Shown here one piece after another: positions 30,113 through 44,802 of a DNA stretch of 48,654 nucleotides. Both the position numbers and the translations under genes were made by a program. Each line of letters opens with the position of its first letter. Position 1 is the first letter of the stretch. Under the pieces are notes generated by a model. The model made no database searches. It was given only the letters and a program-made list of their open reading frames with translations, and was not told the origin of the DNA. Origin of the DNA: a bacterium (GTDB taxonomy: Bacteria > Patescibacteriota > Dojkabacteria > SC72); the NCBI GenBank assembly GCA_021108295.1, contig JAIORF010000102.1, forward strand, positions 176,027 through 224,680, in the 5' to 3' direction.

Positions 30113-31537
30113 CTATTTATTACCTAGGAGATCTCCTACGGTAGCAATCTCAAGTATTGAGTTTGTATACTTGTTTTTTATAGAACTACCGCTAATAATA
30201 GCAATTTTATCGTCAAAATCCAACTCTCCGTATGAAAATACGACTTCAGTTGCTTTTTCTATACTCTCATCTCTGTCTTCTGACAAGAGTGGTGAATAGT
30301 AACACTTAACTCCACGAAGCATATTATCCTCTCTAATTCTCTTAATGTCATCTGTAACCTCATATATTGGAATTGATAATCTATGTCTTGAGAGAGAGTT
30401 AACACTCTTCCCGCTTCTTGATATGACTAGTACTCCTTTAAGATTAAGCGATTTAGAGAGATTAAATACACTCTTGCACAATTCATCTGTATTTTCTGAG
30501 GCTTGGGTTCGACCATATACAAGTTGTGGAGAAAGGATATCCTCTACAGAAAGGGCTATGGTATTCATAGTTGCTACACTCTTTATGGGATGTTTCCCAG
30601 TAGAAGTCTCTGCAGAAAGCATCACGGCATCAGCTCCGTCTATTACGCTGTTGGCTACATCGCTTACTTCTGCCCTGGTTGCTCTAATGTTGTGTCTCAT
30701 ACTTTCGAGCATTTGTGTAGCAACGATTACTGGTTTCCCTACAGCTCTGCATCTATATATTAATTGCTTCTGAATTATTGGAATTTGCTCAAAAGGTATC
30801 TCTACGCCCAGATCTCCTCTAGCAATCATTATTGCATCCGAGTGTTCTAATATGTCGTCAAAATTATCAATACCCGCTTGATTTTCAATCTTGGAGATTA
30901 TATTAATACCACTATCTCCGAGTAACTCTCTTGTAAGTTTTAATACTTCACTATTTTGTACAAAGGAAAGTGCAACAAAATCGTAGCCAAGTGTTACTGC
31001 GGATTGGATGTCGTCTTTATCCTTTTCTGTAAGTAATGGGAAATTAAGAAAGCAATTTGGAATGTTAACTGTTTTATTGGCATTTAGTACTGCATTGTTT
31101 TGAACAATACATATGACATCGGTATCGACAATGTCCTTTACCTTTAGCTCTATATTCCCGTCATCGAGTAAAATGATGGTGTTTCGAGTAATGTCTTTGT
31201 AGAGTTTGTCATAGGTAATTTGTATTTGATTATCATTTGTTAAATCTTTTGTAGAGGGAATTAGGGCAAGAGTTTGACCTTCCTTTAGTGTCTTTTGTGC
31301 TTCAAAGCCAGTAACTCTAATCTTGTTTCCCTTGGTGTCGAGTATGAGAGATATTCTTGATGAAATACTGCGTATTGTTTTTAGCACTCTCTCTAATTCA
31401 TTGAAGTCAGCGAATGAGGCATTAACTCTCGCTATATCAACTCCAGCTTCAATCATTTGTTTGAGAGTGTCTTTCTCCCAGCTTGATGGACCAATGGTAG
31501 CTACTATCTTTGTTTTACAAAACTTTTGGGCAGTCAT
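30113..31537 (-). CDS. pyk: Pyruvate kinase
   Basis: KTKIVATIGPSS, LDTKG, ALSFVQ, SKIEN, MIARGDLGVE, ATQMLESM, RAEVSDVAN, DAVMLSAETSTGKHP. Confidence 0.96.
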   Translation of the reverse strand: MTAQKFCKTKIVATIGPSSWEKDTLKQMIEAGVDIARVNASFADFNELERVLKTIRSISSRISLILDTKGNKIRVTGFEAQKTLKEGQTLALIPSTKDLTNDNQIQITYDKLYKDITRNTIILLDDGNIELKVKDIVDTDVICIVQNNAVLNANKTVNIPNCFLNFPLLTEKDKDDIQSAVTLGYDFVALSFVQNSEVLKLTRELLGDSGINIISKIENQAGIDNFDDILEHSDAIMIARGDLGVEIPFEQIPIIQKQLIYRCRAVGKPVIVATQMLESMRHNIRATRAEVSDVANSVIDGADAVMLSAETSTGKHPIKSVATMNTIALSVEDILSPQLVYGRTQASENTDELCKSVFNLSKSLNLKGVLVISRSGKSVNSLSRHRLSIPIYEVTDDIKRIREDNMLRGVKCYYSPLLSEDRDESIEKATEVVFSYGELDFDDKIAIISGSSIKNKYTNSILEIATVGDLLGNK

Positions 31538-41219: not shown

Positions 41220-41489
41220 ATGGCAAAAAAGCTATTTGTAGGTAATCTTAGCTGGGGAATCAGTGATGAGCAGTTAAGAGAAGCATTCAGTGCATTCGGT
41301 ACTGTAGAAGAGGCTGTTGTTATTACTGACAGACAGTCCGGTAGATCCAAAGGTTTTGGATTTGTCACAATGTCTACTGAGGAAGAAGCACAGAAGGCAG
41401 TCGAAGGACTCAATGAGTCAGAACTTGATGGCAGAGCTATCAACGTTTCTGAAGCCAGAGAGAGAACCGAGGAGAGAAGAAGCTTCTAA
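41220..41489 (+). CDS. Single-RRM RNA-binding protein (Rbp-like)
   Basis: RNP2 KLFVGNL, RNP1 KGFGFVTM, and LDGRAINVSEA. Confidence 0.95.
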   Translation: MAKKLFVGNLSWGISDEQLREAFSAFGTVEEAVVITDRQSGRSKGFGFVTMSTEEEAQKAVEGLNESELDGRAINVSEARERTEERRSF

Positions 41490-41508: not shown

Positions 41509-41540
41509 AAAGGACAGGTTTTACCTGTCCTTTTCTTTTT
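41509..41540 (+). terminator. Intrinsic terminator of the RRM gene
   Basis: AAAGGACAGG-TTTTA-CCTGTCCTTT followed by TCTTTTT. Confidence 0.85.
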
Positions 41541-41571
41541 ATACATACTAATATTTGATATAGTTGTGAAT

Positions 41572-42276
41572 ATGATTAGTCAAATAAAAAAAGAGTTTAA
41601 GAAATATTCTTCGAAAGAGAAGGAAAAGGTTTATAGAAGATTCTTCAAAACAGGTGAAGGTGAATATGGTGAAGGGGATGTTTTTCTTGGTATTACTGCT
41701 CCTGAAATGAAATTAATAGTGAAGAAATTTAGGAAGGATATCTCAATTAAGGAGACCCTACTCTTTCTTCATGACCCTATACATGAGTATAGGGCTTTTG
41801 CATTAAATATATTGAGGTATATGTATGAGAAGGGAGATATGGTTGTTAAGAAAGAGATAGTGGGTATATATTTAGATAATATGGAGTATATAAATAATTG
41901 GGATTTAGTGGATTGCAGTGCACATTATATTGTTGGTGATTATTTATTGGATAAGGATAGGTCTCTTCTTTATGATTTAGCAAAGAGTAATCATTTGTGG
42001 CCTCAAAGAGTATCTATTATCTCTACATTTGCCTTTATTAGAAACAATGAGTTTAAGGATACTTTAAAGATATCAAAGATTTTACTTAGTCATGAGCATG
42101 ATTTAATGCATAAGGCTGTAGGTTGGATGCTAAGAGAGGTATGGAAAAGAGATAGTGTTGTTGTAGAGAATTTTCTTGTTGATAATTACAAGGATATACC
42201 TAGAACTACCTTAAGGTATGCGATTGAGAGAATGGAGGAAGGTAAGAGGAAAAGGTTTTTAAAGGGAGAGTTTTAA
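41572..42276 (+). CDS. DNA alkylation repair protein (AlkD-like HEAT repeat)
   Basis: FFKTGEGEYGEGDVFLGIT, HEYR, NNWDLVD, LWPQR, HDLMHKAVGWMLRE, PRTTLRYAIE. Start 41572 lies 7 nt after TGATATAGT. Confidence 0.9.
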   Translation: MISQIKKEFKKYSSKEKEKVYRRFFKTGEGEYGEGDVFLGITAPEMKLIVKKFRKDISIKETLLFLHDPIHEYRAFALNILRYMYEKGDMVVKKEIVGIYLDNMEYINNWDLVDCSAHYIVGDYLLDKDRSLLYDLAKSNHLWPQRVSIISTFAFIRNNEFKDTLKISKILLSHEHDLMHKAVGWMLREVWKRDSVVVENFLVDNYKDIPRTTLRYAIERMEEGKRKRFLKGEF

Positions 42277-42295
42277 TAATTATAGGAATATATTA

Positions 42296-42323
42296 TTGAC
42301 ATGATTGTGTATAGTGATATACT
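42296..42323 (+). promoter_or_regulatory. Near-consensus sigma70 promoter TTGACA-16-(TGn)TATACT pointing antisense into the mazF-like gene
   Basis: TTGACA at 42296-42301, TG at 42315-16, TATACT at 42318-23. No plus-strand gene follows until 44803. Confidence 0.7.
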
Positions 42324-42329
42324 TAAGTA

Positions 42330-42374
42330 ATTGGCATTAGCCACGACTCCCTCTATCTAGAGGGAGGTAATTTT
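42330..42374 (+). ncRNA. Candidate ~45-nt double-hairpin antisense sRNA overlapping the toxin 3' end
   Basis: TGGC-ATTA-GCCA (42332-43) and CTCCCTCT-ATCT-AGAGGGAG (42347-66), then GTAATTTT, immediately after the promoter. Expression is inferred. Confidence 0.4.
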
Positions 42375-42757
42375 ATGATATCTCTGATACTCTCTATGAC
42401 TTTTGTGTAGTCTCTTTCGTCTAATTCAGTATGTTTATATAGCATTCTTTTAGTACTAAAAACTCTTATTTGAGATGTGAGTGCAGAGATTGTCTTGTTT
42501 TTTACAGTAATGGGGATGTGATACTGATTGTTTTTCAGTTTTGTACTAAGTAGTACTCCAATAAAGGAGTGTTGATTAAACTTTTTTATTACTAGTACTG
42601 GTCTAGCATAGTCTTTTCCTTTCCCAAAAACTTCGTAACCGAGATTATATCCAATTGATATCCACCAAATATCGGATTCTTTGTAGTGTGGGATTGTGTG
42701 AAGACTAGAAGAAATCTTCTTTTTAATCTCATTCCATTCATCGTAGTTAAAATTCAT
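42353..42757 (-). CDS. PemK/MazF-family endoribonuclease toxin, orphan (no antitoxin ORF)
   Basis: YKESDIWWISIGYNLGYE..GKG..ARPVLVIKK..GVLLST..ALTSQIRVFSTKRM, a MazF-type fold pattern. It has its own TAGAAT 5 nt upstream and only 60 nt separate it from the typA stop. Confidence 0.85.
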   Translation of the reverse strand: MNFNYDEWNEIKKKISSSLHTIPHYKESDIWWISIGYNLGYEVFGKGKDYARPVLVIKKFNQHSFIGVLLSTKLKNNQYHIPITVKNKTISALTSQIRVFSTKRMLYKHTELDERDYTKVIESIRDIIKLPPSR

Positions 42758-42817
42758 CCCCTATTCTATATCCTTTTATCTTGGAGATTATGAACGAATG
42801 ATAATGATAATTAACTA

Positions 42818-44722
42818 TTAATCTATACCCATTTCTTGTTTAGCAAAAGCTGTAAGGTTTTTTCTATTTGCCCAAGTCCTCTGAGTTGCAGTAAGAAGTT
42901 TCTTTCTTAATCTAATACTCTTTGGTGTGACCTCTATTAGTTCATCATCATTGATAAAGGATAGTGCAAACTCTACAGTTAGGGGCATTGTAGCCTTAAG
43001 GCTTATCTCTGTAACCTCTGCCTGTGCCATACGTACATTAGTTTTCTTTCTGCTCTTACATGGGTTTACATCTAAATCTTGTTCATGATTATTAATCCCT
43101 ATTATCATACCTTCATATACCTCAGTAGAGCCCTTTATAAATAGTCTACCTCTCTCTTGTATTGAGGTTAGGGCGTATGCTAGTGCTGTACCTGTTTCAG
43201 TAGAAAGTATTACACCTTTTCTAAATAGCTCTTTGTGTTTTTTGAAAGGTACGTAGTCTTTAATATAGCTACTGACTAAAGCAGTTCCTTTTGTGGAGTT
43301 CATTAGTAATCTGTGTAGTCCTATTAAGTTTCTAGTTAGTATCTCGTATGTAAATGTACTTTGTCCATCTGTAGTTTCAATGTTTTTAAGTAATCCCTTC
43401 CTCTCACTGACCTCTTGTGTAATTGCACTTAGGTACTCTTCTGGAGCAAGAATTATTAATTCCTCTAGTGGTTCGCATAGTACACCGTCTACTTCTTGTA
43501 ATATGACTTCTGGCTTACTAAGTTGTAGCTCATATCCTTCCCTTCTTAGTTGTTCTACTAGTATTGAGAGTTGTAGCTCCCCTCTTCCTGATACGTAGTA
43601 TGTGTTTTCTGTACTGTTTTCAATCTTGAGTCCAATATTTAAGTTTCTTTCTTGGTCTAGTCGTTGGGCTAATTGTTTGGCAGTTACATATGTACCTTCT
43701 TTTCCTGAGAAGGGTGAACTGTTTGCTTGAAACTTTACTCTTACACTTGGTGGAGTTATCTTTATCTTAGGTAGTATTTCTTCATTACCTAAGCTACATA
43801 TGGTTGCTCCTATATCTGTAGATTCTACTCCTGCGATTGCTACAATGTCTCCTACGACTGAGTTAGGAGTACTTCCCCATACTAGACCGTTTTTGGTAAA
43901 GAGACCTCTTACACGTCCTTGGGTTTTTTCTATATTCCCATCACTATCTTTATGGAGTACTATTACTGGGTCGTCTTTCTTTACACTTCCTCTATTAATT
44001 TTTCCTATTAAATATCTTCCAAGATGACTGTCATATTCTAGTGAGGTTACTTGCATTTGAAATGTTCCATTGCTGTCTCCCTCTGGAGGGGGCATATGGT
44101 CTACTATTTCATCTAGTATTGGAGAGATATCTCCGTGTGTATTATTTGCAATTGTTAGATCTCCTTCTGGTAGTGCTTTAAATATTTTACCTTCTCTTGC
44201 AATCCCGTAGTAGACAGGAAATTCTAGTTGTTCTGTATCTGTAGCTAGTTCTAAGAAAAGGTCTTGCACTTTGTCTAGTGTTCTTTCGCAGTTTGCTAGT
44301 TTTTTGTCTATCTTGTTTATTATCAGTACTGGTTTAAGCCCTATCTCTAATGCTCTCTTGAGTACAAACTTTGTTTGTGGCATTACTCCTTCCTGTGCGT
44401 CTACGAGTAGTAGACAGCTGTCTGCCATGTTTAGGGTTCTTTCTACTTCTCCACCAAAGTCTGCGTGTCCTGGTGTGTCTATGATGTTTATTTTGGTATC
44501 TCTGTATGTGATTGAGATATTTTTTGCACTTATTGTAATCCCTTTTTCTCTTTCTAGTTCTCCTGTGTCTAGGATTCTTTCTTGTGTCATTTCTTCTTCG
44601 TTGTCTCTGAAGAGGTGTGTTTGTTTCATAAAGGCGTCAACAAGGGTAGTTTTACCATGGTCAACGTGTGCAATTATTGCTACATTTCTTATATTTTCTT
44701 GTTTTAGTTCTGTGTTGTTCAT
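42818..44722 (-). CDS. typA: Translational GTPase TypA/BipA
   Basis: RNVAIIAHVDHGKTTLVD, ELEREKGITI, DTPGHADFGGEVER, NKID, GRGELQLSIL, EVTPKSIRLRK. Confidence 0.97.
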   Translation of the reverse strand: MNNTELKQENIRNVAIIAHVDHGKTTLVDAFMKQTHLFRDNEEEMTQERILDTGELEREKGITISAKNISITYRDTKINIIDTPGHADFGGEVERTLNMADSCLLLVDAQEGVMPQTKFVLKRALEIGLKPVLIINKIDKKLANCERTLDKVQDLFLELATDTEQLEFPVYYGIAREGKIFKALPEGDLTIANNTHGDISPILDEIVDHMPPPEGDSNGTFQMQVTSLEYDSHLGRYLIGKINRGSVKKDDPVIVLHKDSDGNIEKTQGRVRGLFTKNGLVWGSTPNSVVGDIVAIAGVESTDIGATICSLGNEEILPKIKITPPSVRVKFQANSSPFSGKEGTYVTAKQLAQRLDQERNLNIGLKIENSTENTYYVSGRGELQLSILVEQLRREGYELQLSKPEVILQEVDGVLCEPLEELIILAPEEYLSAITQEVSERKGLLKNIETTDGQSTFTYEILTRNLIGLHRLLMNSTKGTALVSSYIKDYVPFKKHKELFRKGVILSTETGTALAYALTSIQERGRLFIKGSTEVYEGMIIGINNHEQDLDVNPCKSRKKTNVRMAQAEVTEISLKATMPLTVEFALSFINDDELIEVTPKSIRLRKKLLTATQRTWANRKNLTAFAKQEMGID

Positions 44723-44802
44723 ACAAGTTGTAATTCTATCATATTAAGATAGATTTAGTTAGGTTTATTGTAAAGAGTAAGTGGATTTTGTACAATATCG
44801 TT

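Follow-up and report, generated by a model that had tools for sequence, protein, structure and literature searches.

Organisation of the locus

The present analysis concerns a 48,654-nucleotide (nt) stretch of Dojkabacteria DNA (assembly GCA_021108295.1, contig JAIORF010000102.1, positions 176,027 to 224,680; hereafter referred to as the window), and within it a solo toxin gene of the PemK/MazF family, an open reading frame (ORF) of 134 aa on the minus strand (42353..42757), together with a predicted small RNA (sRNA) of about 40-47 nt that is encoded on the plus strand (42330..42376) and converges upon the 3' end of the toxin gene. The toxin gene is separated by 60 nt from the TypA/BipA gene (42818..44722, minus strand) and by 76 nt from the end, at 42276, of a convergent DNA-alkylation-repair gene. 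A preliminary description of this DNA had remarked that these spacers leave no space for an antitoxin ORF and that no plus-strand gene lies nearby; both remarks hold, the next substantial plus-strand ORF beginning only at 44788. The toxin and sRNA genes together make up a module of about 560 bp.

The PemK/MazF-family protein

The 134-aa ORF is matched by the PemK_toxin domain of Pfam (PF02452) with an E-value of 6e-11 and a score of 42.9 bits against a cut-off of 23.1, the alignment spanning positions 3-108 of the 109 profile positions, and by the 'MazF-like growth inhibitor' family of PHROGs (phrog_9567, E 1.5e-22); no match was obtained in NCBIfam and none in PADLOC. A PDB profile search, for which the profile of 23 toxin homologues served as the query, matched the Bacillus subtilis MazF/EndoA structures 4mdx, 1ne8 and 4me7 at about 2e-5. 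Arg52, which is invariant in the family, aligns with the catalytic Arg25 of B. subtilis MazF (4mdx), and the nearly invariant Ser71 with Thr48 of the same structure. The AlphaFold (AF2) model of the toxin has a mean predicted local distance difference test (pLDDT) score of 68.8, with values of 79-88 in the core, and the top 50 PDB matches retrieved by Foldseek with this model are MazF structures only, with TM scores of 0.59-0.70 on target length; the predicted structure shows the SH3-like barrel of the MazF/Kid fold. On the basis of the Pfam, PDB profile and fold matches and the aligned catalytic residues, the ORF is considered to be a true PemK/MazF-family protein and its product a predicted endoribonuclease of this family.

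The family carries an additional N-terminal helix, YDEWNEIKKK, with invariant W8 and K12, which is not found in canonical MazF. The C-terminal tail of the window toxin, LPPSR*, is encoded by the long hairpin of the sRNA. At codon 69 (42550..42555) the window toxin has a Leu in place of a nearly invariant Pro, reading VLLSTK where the family has IPLSTK; the substitution lies two residues ahead of the putative catalytic Ser71, and the enzyme may be attenuated.

The region upstream of the toxin gene (42758..42817, minus strand), which is presumed to hold its promoter and translation start, was examined in an alignment of five close loci, and two conserved blocks were observed, GTTCATAAT at 42795..42787 and GATATAGAATAGGGG at 42772..42758. 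The latter directly adjoins the toxin ATG and could be the -10 box of a leaderless mRNA, or an operator. The -10 box of its own with which the toxin gene had previously been credited is thus plausible in view of the two conserved blocks, while its placement is left between them, as either block may be the promoter.

The convergent small RNA gene

On the plus strand, a -35 box TTGACA (42296..42301) is followed after 16 nt by TATACT (42318-42323), which with a TG at 42315-16 forms the extended -10 box TGaTATACT (42315..42323), both boxes being recognised by a promoter scan and by their conservation. The promoter scores 11/12 with the extended -10 and ranks top of the 33 promoter-like sites in 10 kb, in agreement with the preliminary description, in which it was the most consensus-like promoter and lay opposite to the toxin. 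Since the total number of such sites does not exceed that of shuffles (33 found against 37 expected), one site of this kind could be due to chance; the promoter is taken as real because it is conserved across the homologous loci.

A covariance model termed R1, built from seven homologous sequences with a hand-set structure, matches the window at 42327..42376 (+) with 54.9 bits and an E-value of 7e-21. The start of the sRNA is placed about 7 nt past the -10 box, and its 3' end either in the U tract (42368-42376) or at the foot of the long hairpin. The RNA begins with a 5' hairpin, UGGC-AUUA-GCCA (42332..42343), which is part of the near-invariant module AUUGGCAUUAGCCACGAC, followed by the single-stranded linker CGA (42344..42346), conserved in the alignments and seen also in other sRNA classes. 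The long GC-rich hairpin (42347..42366), identified by its fold and a terminator-like scan score, reads CTCCCTCT-ATCT-AGAGGGAG as DNA and CUCCCUCU-AUCU-AGAGGGAG as RNA, and overlaps the last five codons of the toxin gene as well as its stop codon (42353-42355). The tail GUAAUUUUAU (DNA GTAATTTTAT; 42367..42376) is a possible terminator U tract; it is U-tract-like in the window and A-rich (CAAAAU) in most relatives, and a sequence scan rated the long hairpin together with the T tract as terminator-like. The two-hairpin RNA fold has an energy of -18.9 kcal/mol with a z of -3.8. Both hairpins, TGGC-ATTA-GCCA and the longer one enclosing the stop codon, are therefore as first described, and the RNA of about 45 nt proposed to start with them corresponds to a conserved sRNA gene with predicted ends.

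No family of Rfam 15 matches the element of the window even at E<=10 (41900..43100 searched), and none matches the sRNA element at the gathering threshold in 20 related loci. The 3' arm of the hairpin reads AGGGAGG, and an ATG 7 nt further on opens an 11-codon hydrophobic ORF (42360..42411, +; AGGGAGGTAATTTTATG..., MISLILSMTFV); this ORF was dismissed as a chance occurrence because its ATG is absent in the related loci L001 and L002.

Conservation and covariation of the RNA

A protein-alignment search yielded more than 548 toxin relatives in species-representative genomes, and 80 loci were kept. The relatives belong to the Patescibacteria, Campylobacterota, Alphaproteobacteria, Bacteroidota, Verrucomicrobiota and Deinococcota, and the toxin module is widespread in the reduced genomes of the candidate phyla radiation (CPR). 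Among the four closest homologous loci, L001 is syntenic with the window (TypA, MazF, DNA-alkylation gene and RRM gene); in L002, also from the Dojkabacteria, the toxin gene lies between rpmG and a VTT-domain gene in an L33/SecE/NusG context, and in L003 and L004 it occupies further, different contexts. In all four loci both hairpins are present at or over the stop codon together with an opposite-strand promoter whose position and spacing are kept and whose spacer sequence varies, and in none of the four is there an antitoxin-sized neighbour beside the toxin gene. The sRNA element follows the toxin gene regardless of the adjoining gene, in these closest loci as well as in the wider set.

Compensatory changes are evident in close homologues, both in the long hairpin (CCCCCUCU/AGAGGGGG and CUCUCUCU/AGAGAGAG) and in the short hairpin (GGAC/GUCC); among the homologues the short hairpin also has the compensatory variants UGCC/GGCA and UGGG/CCCA. 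The stop codon shifts relative to the hairpins among the close loci, giving proteins of 128, 134 or 140 aa, and therefore the conservation of the hairpins is not a protein constraint. R1 matches at least 25 relative loci, and each of these matches lies at the 3' end of the toxin gene, on the strand opposite to it. In a 28-sequence alignment 98.2% of the cells pair and 12 of the 13 pairs have changed on both sides; all nine modelled pairs of the long hairpin show double-sided changes among 27 distinct sequences. The covariation score is 0.662 as against 0.203 for shuffles, none of 500 of which reaches it, and 0.09-0.16 for slid partners; the alignment was fitted to R1, which somewhat inflates these figures, and the unaligned raw sequences give the same pattern.

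In the window, L002 and L003 the module AUUGGCAUUAGCCACGAC does not encode protein; it is nearly unchanged in the Patescibacteria, Alphaproteobacteria, Bacteroidota, Verrucomicrobiota and Deinococcota, whose toxins share less than 40% identity. In the loci that R1 does not match, a reverse-strand promoter and two hairpins, one short and one long and GC-rich, are still present past the stop codon; therefore several sRNA classes exist, including three-hairpin and Campylobacterota forms.

Functional strand and overlap with the toxin gene

Four independent lines of evidence indicate that the functional strand is the one antisense to the toxin. Read on this strand, the paired positions include 16 G·U against 2 A·C. 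Of 83 loci, 52 have the more stable fold of the segment from 25 nt before to 70 nt after the stop codon on the antisense strand and 29 on the other, a comparison made independently of R1 (Wilcoxon p 0.006). Read as the sRNA, relatives have GNRA or UUCG loops in the long hairpin, and hairpins closed by such tetraloops total 39 on this strand as opposed to 2 on that of the toxin. Finally, an antisense-strand promoter scoring at least 10/12 within 150 nt of the stop codon occurs in 67% of 82 homologous loci, the corresponding figures being 6% for the toxin strand and 4% for windows drawn at random from these loci; the median distance from the end of the -10 box to the toxin stop is 56 nt. The check that had been proposed for this locus, namely a conserved convergent promoter combined with covarying hairpins in homologues, thus gave a positive outcome (67% for the promoter, 12/13 for the pairs).

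As a rule the sRNA spans the final codons of the toxin gene together with its stop. In 36 of 55 distinct sRNA-toxin pairs the stop codon falls among positions 1-17 of the sRNA model, and in about 31 of these it is a UAA opposite the AUUA loop of the sRNA, so that the ORF continues through the long hairpin and has a tail resembling ...LPPxxxxGRG; six further pairs have the stop inside the long hairpin, as in the window.

Coupling of the RNA to the toxin

The association was also examined from the side of the RNA, by a metagenome scan with the 18-mer ATTGGCRYTAGCCACGRC that gave 80 loci, which were then scored with R1. The scores are bimodal, with 39 sites at 45 bits or more and the remainder at 31 bits or less; about half of the 18-mer matches are chance occurrences within GC-rich coding DNA and were excluded by this gap. 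A convergent MazF-like ORF adjoins 37 of the 39 true sRNA sites. One of the two exceptions is L151 (919-1100), in which the sRNA and its promoter are intact and the toxin is cut to its first ~20 codons (MDYVKDFDGWIEKKK...); the other, in L106, is an extra copy of the sRNA situated about 60 nt upstream of the next MazF gene. The RNA gene is thus real, is read opposite to the toxin and is evolutionarily locked to the toxin family across phyla.

Copies of the sRNA upstream of the toxin, about 60-85 nt before its start, were observed in L010 (2879-2930), L033 (12-63), L106 (881-932) and L009 (2490-2521). The upstream and downstream copies lie on one strand, so that the toxin gene is bracketed by direct repeats. 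Tandem MazF-sRNA modules occur on one contig in L106 (1-2310), L109 (9600-11200) and L142 (140-1700). The L106 modules adjoin a DUF3800 gene (Pfam E 3e-15); DUF3800 was considered as a second partner of the sRNA in this locus and was dismissed, the DUF3800 ORF ending 105 nt before the sRNA copy. In L004 (3380-3480) two tandem 45-nt sRNA units lie behind one promoter, with a GGAC/GUCC versus UGGC/GCCA change, and the only other array-like case is a second sRNA copy 90 nt away in L036. An integron attC-like site or the end of a mobile element was dismissed as an identity for the hairpins in view of the conserved promoter, the RNA-specific tetraloops on one strand and the absence of arrays.

Search for a protein antitoxin

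Same-strand ORFs of 40-170 aa no more than 200 nt away from the toxin gene, before or after it, were collected from 77 loci. An all-against-all BLASTP comparison of the 49 flanking ORFs of at least 50 aa produced a single syntenic pair and no recurrent antitoxin family. The spacers of the window hold no adjacent co-transcribed antitoxin of the MazE/PemI, AbrB or RHH kind, as would characterise a type II system, no family of small ORFs recurs in the 77 loci, and the toxin gene is solo in every homologous locus examined.

Relatives on Campylobacter plasmids and prophages

Searches of plasmids with tblastn located the toxin family on plasmids of Campylobacter, Helicobacter and Nitratiruptor. The homologue on plasmid pVir of C. 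jejuni 81-176 (30634..31038; E 3e-17, about 40% identity) is the PemK-like ORF CJJ81176_RS08830, which adjoins the old tag pVir0047/48 and whose stop lies at 31038. An sRNA of 77 nt, CJpv3, has been mapped to the minus strand of pVir (31119->31043), between pVir0047 and pVir0048, and detected on a Northern blot (Dugar et al. 2013, PMC3656092, Table S12). Its coordinates coincide with the hairpin region past the toxin stop, downstream of a TGnTATAAT promoter, and it ends 2 nt after the last hairpin. As related in PMC10470494 and PMC7826846, Shen et al. (2016, Mol Microbiol 101:909) described a type I pair on pVir, consisting of the antisense RNA CjrA and the protein toxin CjpT. This pair is probably CJpv3 and the pVir PemK-like ORF; the same research group gives CJpv2 and CjrA as separate items, which lends this equation indirect support. 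R1 finds no match in the C. jejuni locus L080 at E<=1, and no RNA runs were found for this locus.

A pVir-type sRNA with a TGnTATAAT promoter and no PemK gene is present on the C. jejuni plasmid pCJ419 (NC_004997.1; L086, 1501-1595), and cryptic Campylobacter plasmids of 3.8-5.2 kb carry the sRNA and promoter at 93% identity without the PemK gene. The toxin-less plasmid sRNA may be an orphan antitoxin or an anti-addiction element. The loss of the toxin with retention of the sRNA, seen in L151 and in these plasmids, is a decay pattern like that of toxin-antitoxin (TA) systems. In the CJIE4 prophages of C. jejuni a MazF-like gene is found as a moron between the genes for the terminase large subunit and the portal; in Campylobacter phage CJIE4-3 (L207, 1192-1720) a GC hairpin lies over the stop codon and a convergent TGATATAAT promoter about 95 nt downstream.

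Probable role of the sRNA

The sRNA is probably the RNA antitoxin of a MazF toxin that has no MazE partner: because the same pairing recurs in dozens of loci and many phyla, the RNA is the most likely candidate for the missing antidote. The earlier proposal of a MazF-fold nuclease controlled by a cis-encoded convergent sRNA is supported by the covariation, the promoter, the two-way co-occurrence of RNA and toxin, the lack of a recurrent antitoxin and the sRNA of C. jejuni. The idea is not wholly new, since CjrA/CjpT on pVir was, according to the secondary accounts, published in 2016 as a type I pair.

The locus would then represent a two-gene, TA-like module made up of a MazF/PemK endoribonuclease and a convergent, strongly promoted RNA of about 45 nt. 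The sequence of this RNA is a perfect complement of the end of the toxin message, and in the window the complementarity extends over the stop codon. An abundant sRNA would keep the toxin in check, the most economical route being base-pairing with the 3' end of the toxin mRNA, in the manner of type I systems that overlap at the 3' end. Such pairing could create a substrate for RNase III and remove the stop codon or a protective 3' hairpin, which would result in a non-stop or unprotected toxin mRNA and lower toxin synthesis. Antisense action is rated somewhat ahead of binding to the toxin, and a hybrid of the two is possible; the antisense route would be the simplest and would match the type I label published for the Campylobacter system. 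Pairing of the sRNA with the ribosome-binding region of the toxin was considered and rejected, the match, as judged by eye, being 4 bp only and not conserved in L003.

Several observations weigh against an antitoxin acting by antisense pairing. The activity of the window toxin is not assured because Leu replaces the nearly invariant Pro69, and the window sequence is found in DNA metagenome runs only (cold seep and marine sediment). The equation of CjpT with the pVir PemK-like ORF is itself an inferred one, and the Campylobacter sRNA belongs to another structural class with a different hairpin architecture. In 13 of the 55 sRNA-toxin pairs the stop codon is situated at the 3' edge of the hairpin or past it, so that the sRNA overlaps the 3' untranslated region only, and the upstream copies in L010, L033 and L106 have no obvious transcript to which they would be antisense. 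A pure cis-antisense RNA needs no conservation of primary sequence, yet the 5' module hardly varies from phylum to phylum, and the closed tetraloops are poor kissing loops. Since the invariant module, the closed tetraloops, the copies that could act only in trans and the tandem units of L004 are not needed for cis-antisense action, direct recognition is suggested, most plausibly by the toxin; in particular, a non-coding 5' module that hardly varies points to direct contact of the RNA with a conserved partner as well, plausibly the toxin.

An alternative in which the RNA acts wholly through the protein is unlikely on balance. The folded sRNA, perhaps trimmed by the toxin, would bind the MazF-like dimer and block its active-site groove as in type III systems, the complementarity to the mRNA being a by-product of the overlap. 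The toxin is the only factor that always accompanies the RNA, and AUUGGCAUUAGCCACGAC, although non-coding, hardly changes across phyla while the toxins fall below 40% identity; the two 45-nt units of L004 and the second copy in L036 also speak for it, and the copies upstream of toxins and the orphan plasmid copies imply action in trans. ToxN, moreover, has a Kid/MazF-like fold. However, nearly all loci have the RNA as a single copy, its gene converges on the toxin gene and does not precede it in the same direction, there is no repeat array, no processing site was identified, and the Campylobacter system carries a type I label in the literature. It is conceivable, with some doubt, that the loci belong to a very large class without annotation, in which a single-copy, self-promoted, convergent structured RNA neutralises a genuine MazF/PemK RNase by direct binding. 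This would be a TA type apart from types I-III, and AUUGGCAUUAGCCACGAC would then be held by the toxin, perhaps via the Lys-rich N-terminal helix specific to the family.

It is very unlikely that the sRNA is no antidote and instead forms a ribonucleoprotein with a housekeeping RNase of the MazF fold, as its cofactor, guide or dedicated substrate. The location of the module among core genes (TypA in the window, L33/SecE/NusG in L002), the very tight coupling of RNA and toxin and the wide occurrence in reduced CPR genomes would suit such a role, but the module moves between unrelated contexts, is present on plasmids and prophages, often has several copies per contig (L106, L109, L142) and may lose its toxin and keep the RNA, all of which is typical of selfish TA modules. 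Still less probable is a conventional protein antitoxin encoded elsewhere, with the sRNA merely fine-tuning expression in the way that the antisense RNA aMEF, of a different system, modulates a canonical mazEF locus (PMC8749433); this is countered by the lack of a recurrent adjacent ORF in the 77 loci and by the solo state of the gene in every locus examined from a family of more than 548 homologues. Lastly, the hairpins might be no more than a terminator serving both convergent genes, with a promoter that matches by chance in AT-rich DNA. The terminator-like score of the long hairpin with its T tract and the lack of enrichment of promoter-like sites (33 against 37 expected) might speak for this notion, which is nevertheless effectively refuted: the element tracks the toxin whatever the neighbouring gene, the conserved promoter keeps a fixed distance, conservation and covariation extend to the 5' hairpin and linker, and most relatives are without a U tract.

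MazF is the textbook toxin of type II systems, and all members of its family receive the label 'type II toxin-antitoxin system toxin' in annotation pipelines; the present subfamily, without MazE and locked to a small RNA gene, comprises more than 548 loci in many phyla, on plasmids and in prophages. If the sRNA is indeed the antitoxin, RNA antitoxins would extend beyond peptide toxins and ToxN-like enzymes, type I-like control could be phylogenetically broad, and thousands of 'orphan' MazF genes, many of them in ultra-small uncultivated bacteria, would gain an explanation and a missing annotation.

Comparison with known systems

The closest published relative of the window locus is the CJpv3/PemK-like pair of pVir. 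The two share the toxin subfamily, with its N-terminal helix (DEWNEVKK in pVir) and PemK Pfam domain, the absence of an adjacent protein antitoxin, and an sRNA arranged tail-to-tail with a strong promoter of its own and a GC hairpin at the stop codon; they differ in that the Campylobacter sRNA is 77 nt long, has 3-4 hairpins, does not overlap the coding sequence and is not detected by R1.

The toxins of type I systems are usually small hydrophobic peptides, SymE and RalR being exceptions, and these systems are noted for their narrow distribution. The txpA/RatA, bsrG/SR4 and yonT/SR6 pairs of B. subtilis resemble the window locus in having a convergent RNA over the 3' end of the toxin mRNA and a promoter asymmetry that favours the RNA. 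Their toxins are small membrane peptides, whereas that of the window is a soluble 134-aa predicted MazF-fold RNase, and the window-type RNA is very short and conserved in sequence and structure across phyla, which is atypical for type I. Thus an antisense RNA gene overlapping the toxin transcript is present, its expression being known for the C. jejuni homologue only, and a small hydrophobic peptide toxin is not.

ToxN, the type III toxin, has a Kid/MazF-like fold, and the type III systems ToxIN, CptIN and TenpIN likewise combine an RNA, in units of about 45 nt as in the tandem pair of L004, with an endoribonuclease of this fold. The window toxin, unlike ToxN, is PemK/MazF by sequence and does not fall into the ToxN, AbiQ, CptN or TenpN families (PemK_toxin is the only Pfam match, and PADLOC gives none). 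Its RNA is single-copy, convergent and self-promoted in contrast to the upstream co-directional repeat array of type III; no upstream same-strand repeat array was seen, and only L004 has two tandem units. With the type II systems MazEF and PemIK the window locus shares the toxin family, fold and catalytic residues, but it has no MazE/PemI gene, possesses the extra N-terminal helix and carries an RNA gene in the place of the partner.

Rfam also holds a pemK RNA motif, RF02913, which reportedly consists of hairpins upstream of pemK genes in Firmicutes. A search of 41900..43100 at E<=10 gave no match to it, nor did one of the 20 loci at the gathering threshold. Its likeness to the window RNA lies in its having been named for an association with pemK (Weinberg et al. 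2017). No description of a multi-phylum MazF-sRNA family with conserved RNA classes was found in the searchable literature.

Neighbouring genes

On the side of the DNA-alkylation-repair gene lies a gene for an RRM-type RNA-binding protein of 89 aa (41220..41489), and a strong terminator hairpin of 11 bp (41509-41533) comes after it. The program-called ORF of 319 aa that begins at 41317 is over-extended, and the start of the DNA-alkylation-repair gene is probably near 41570; the Pfam domain covers residues 90-306 of this ORF.

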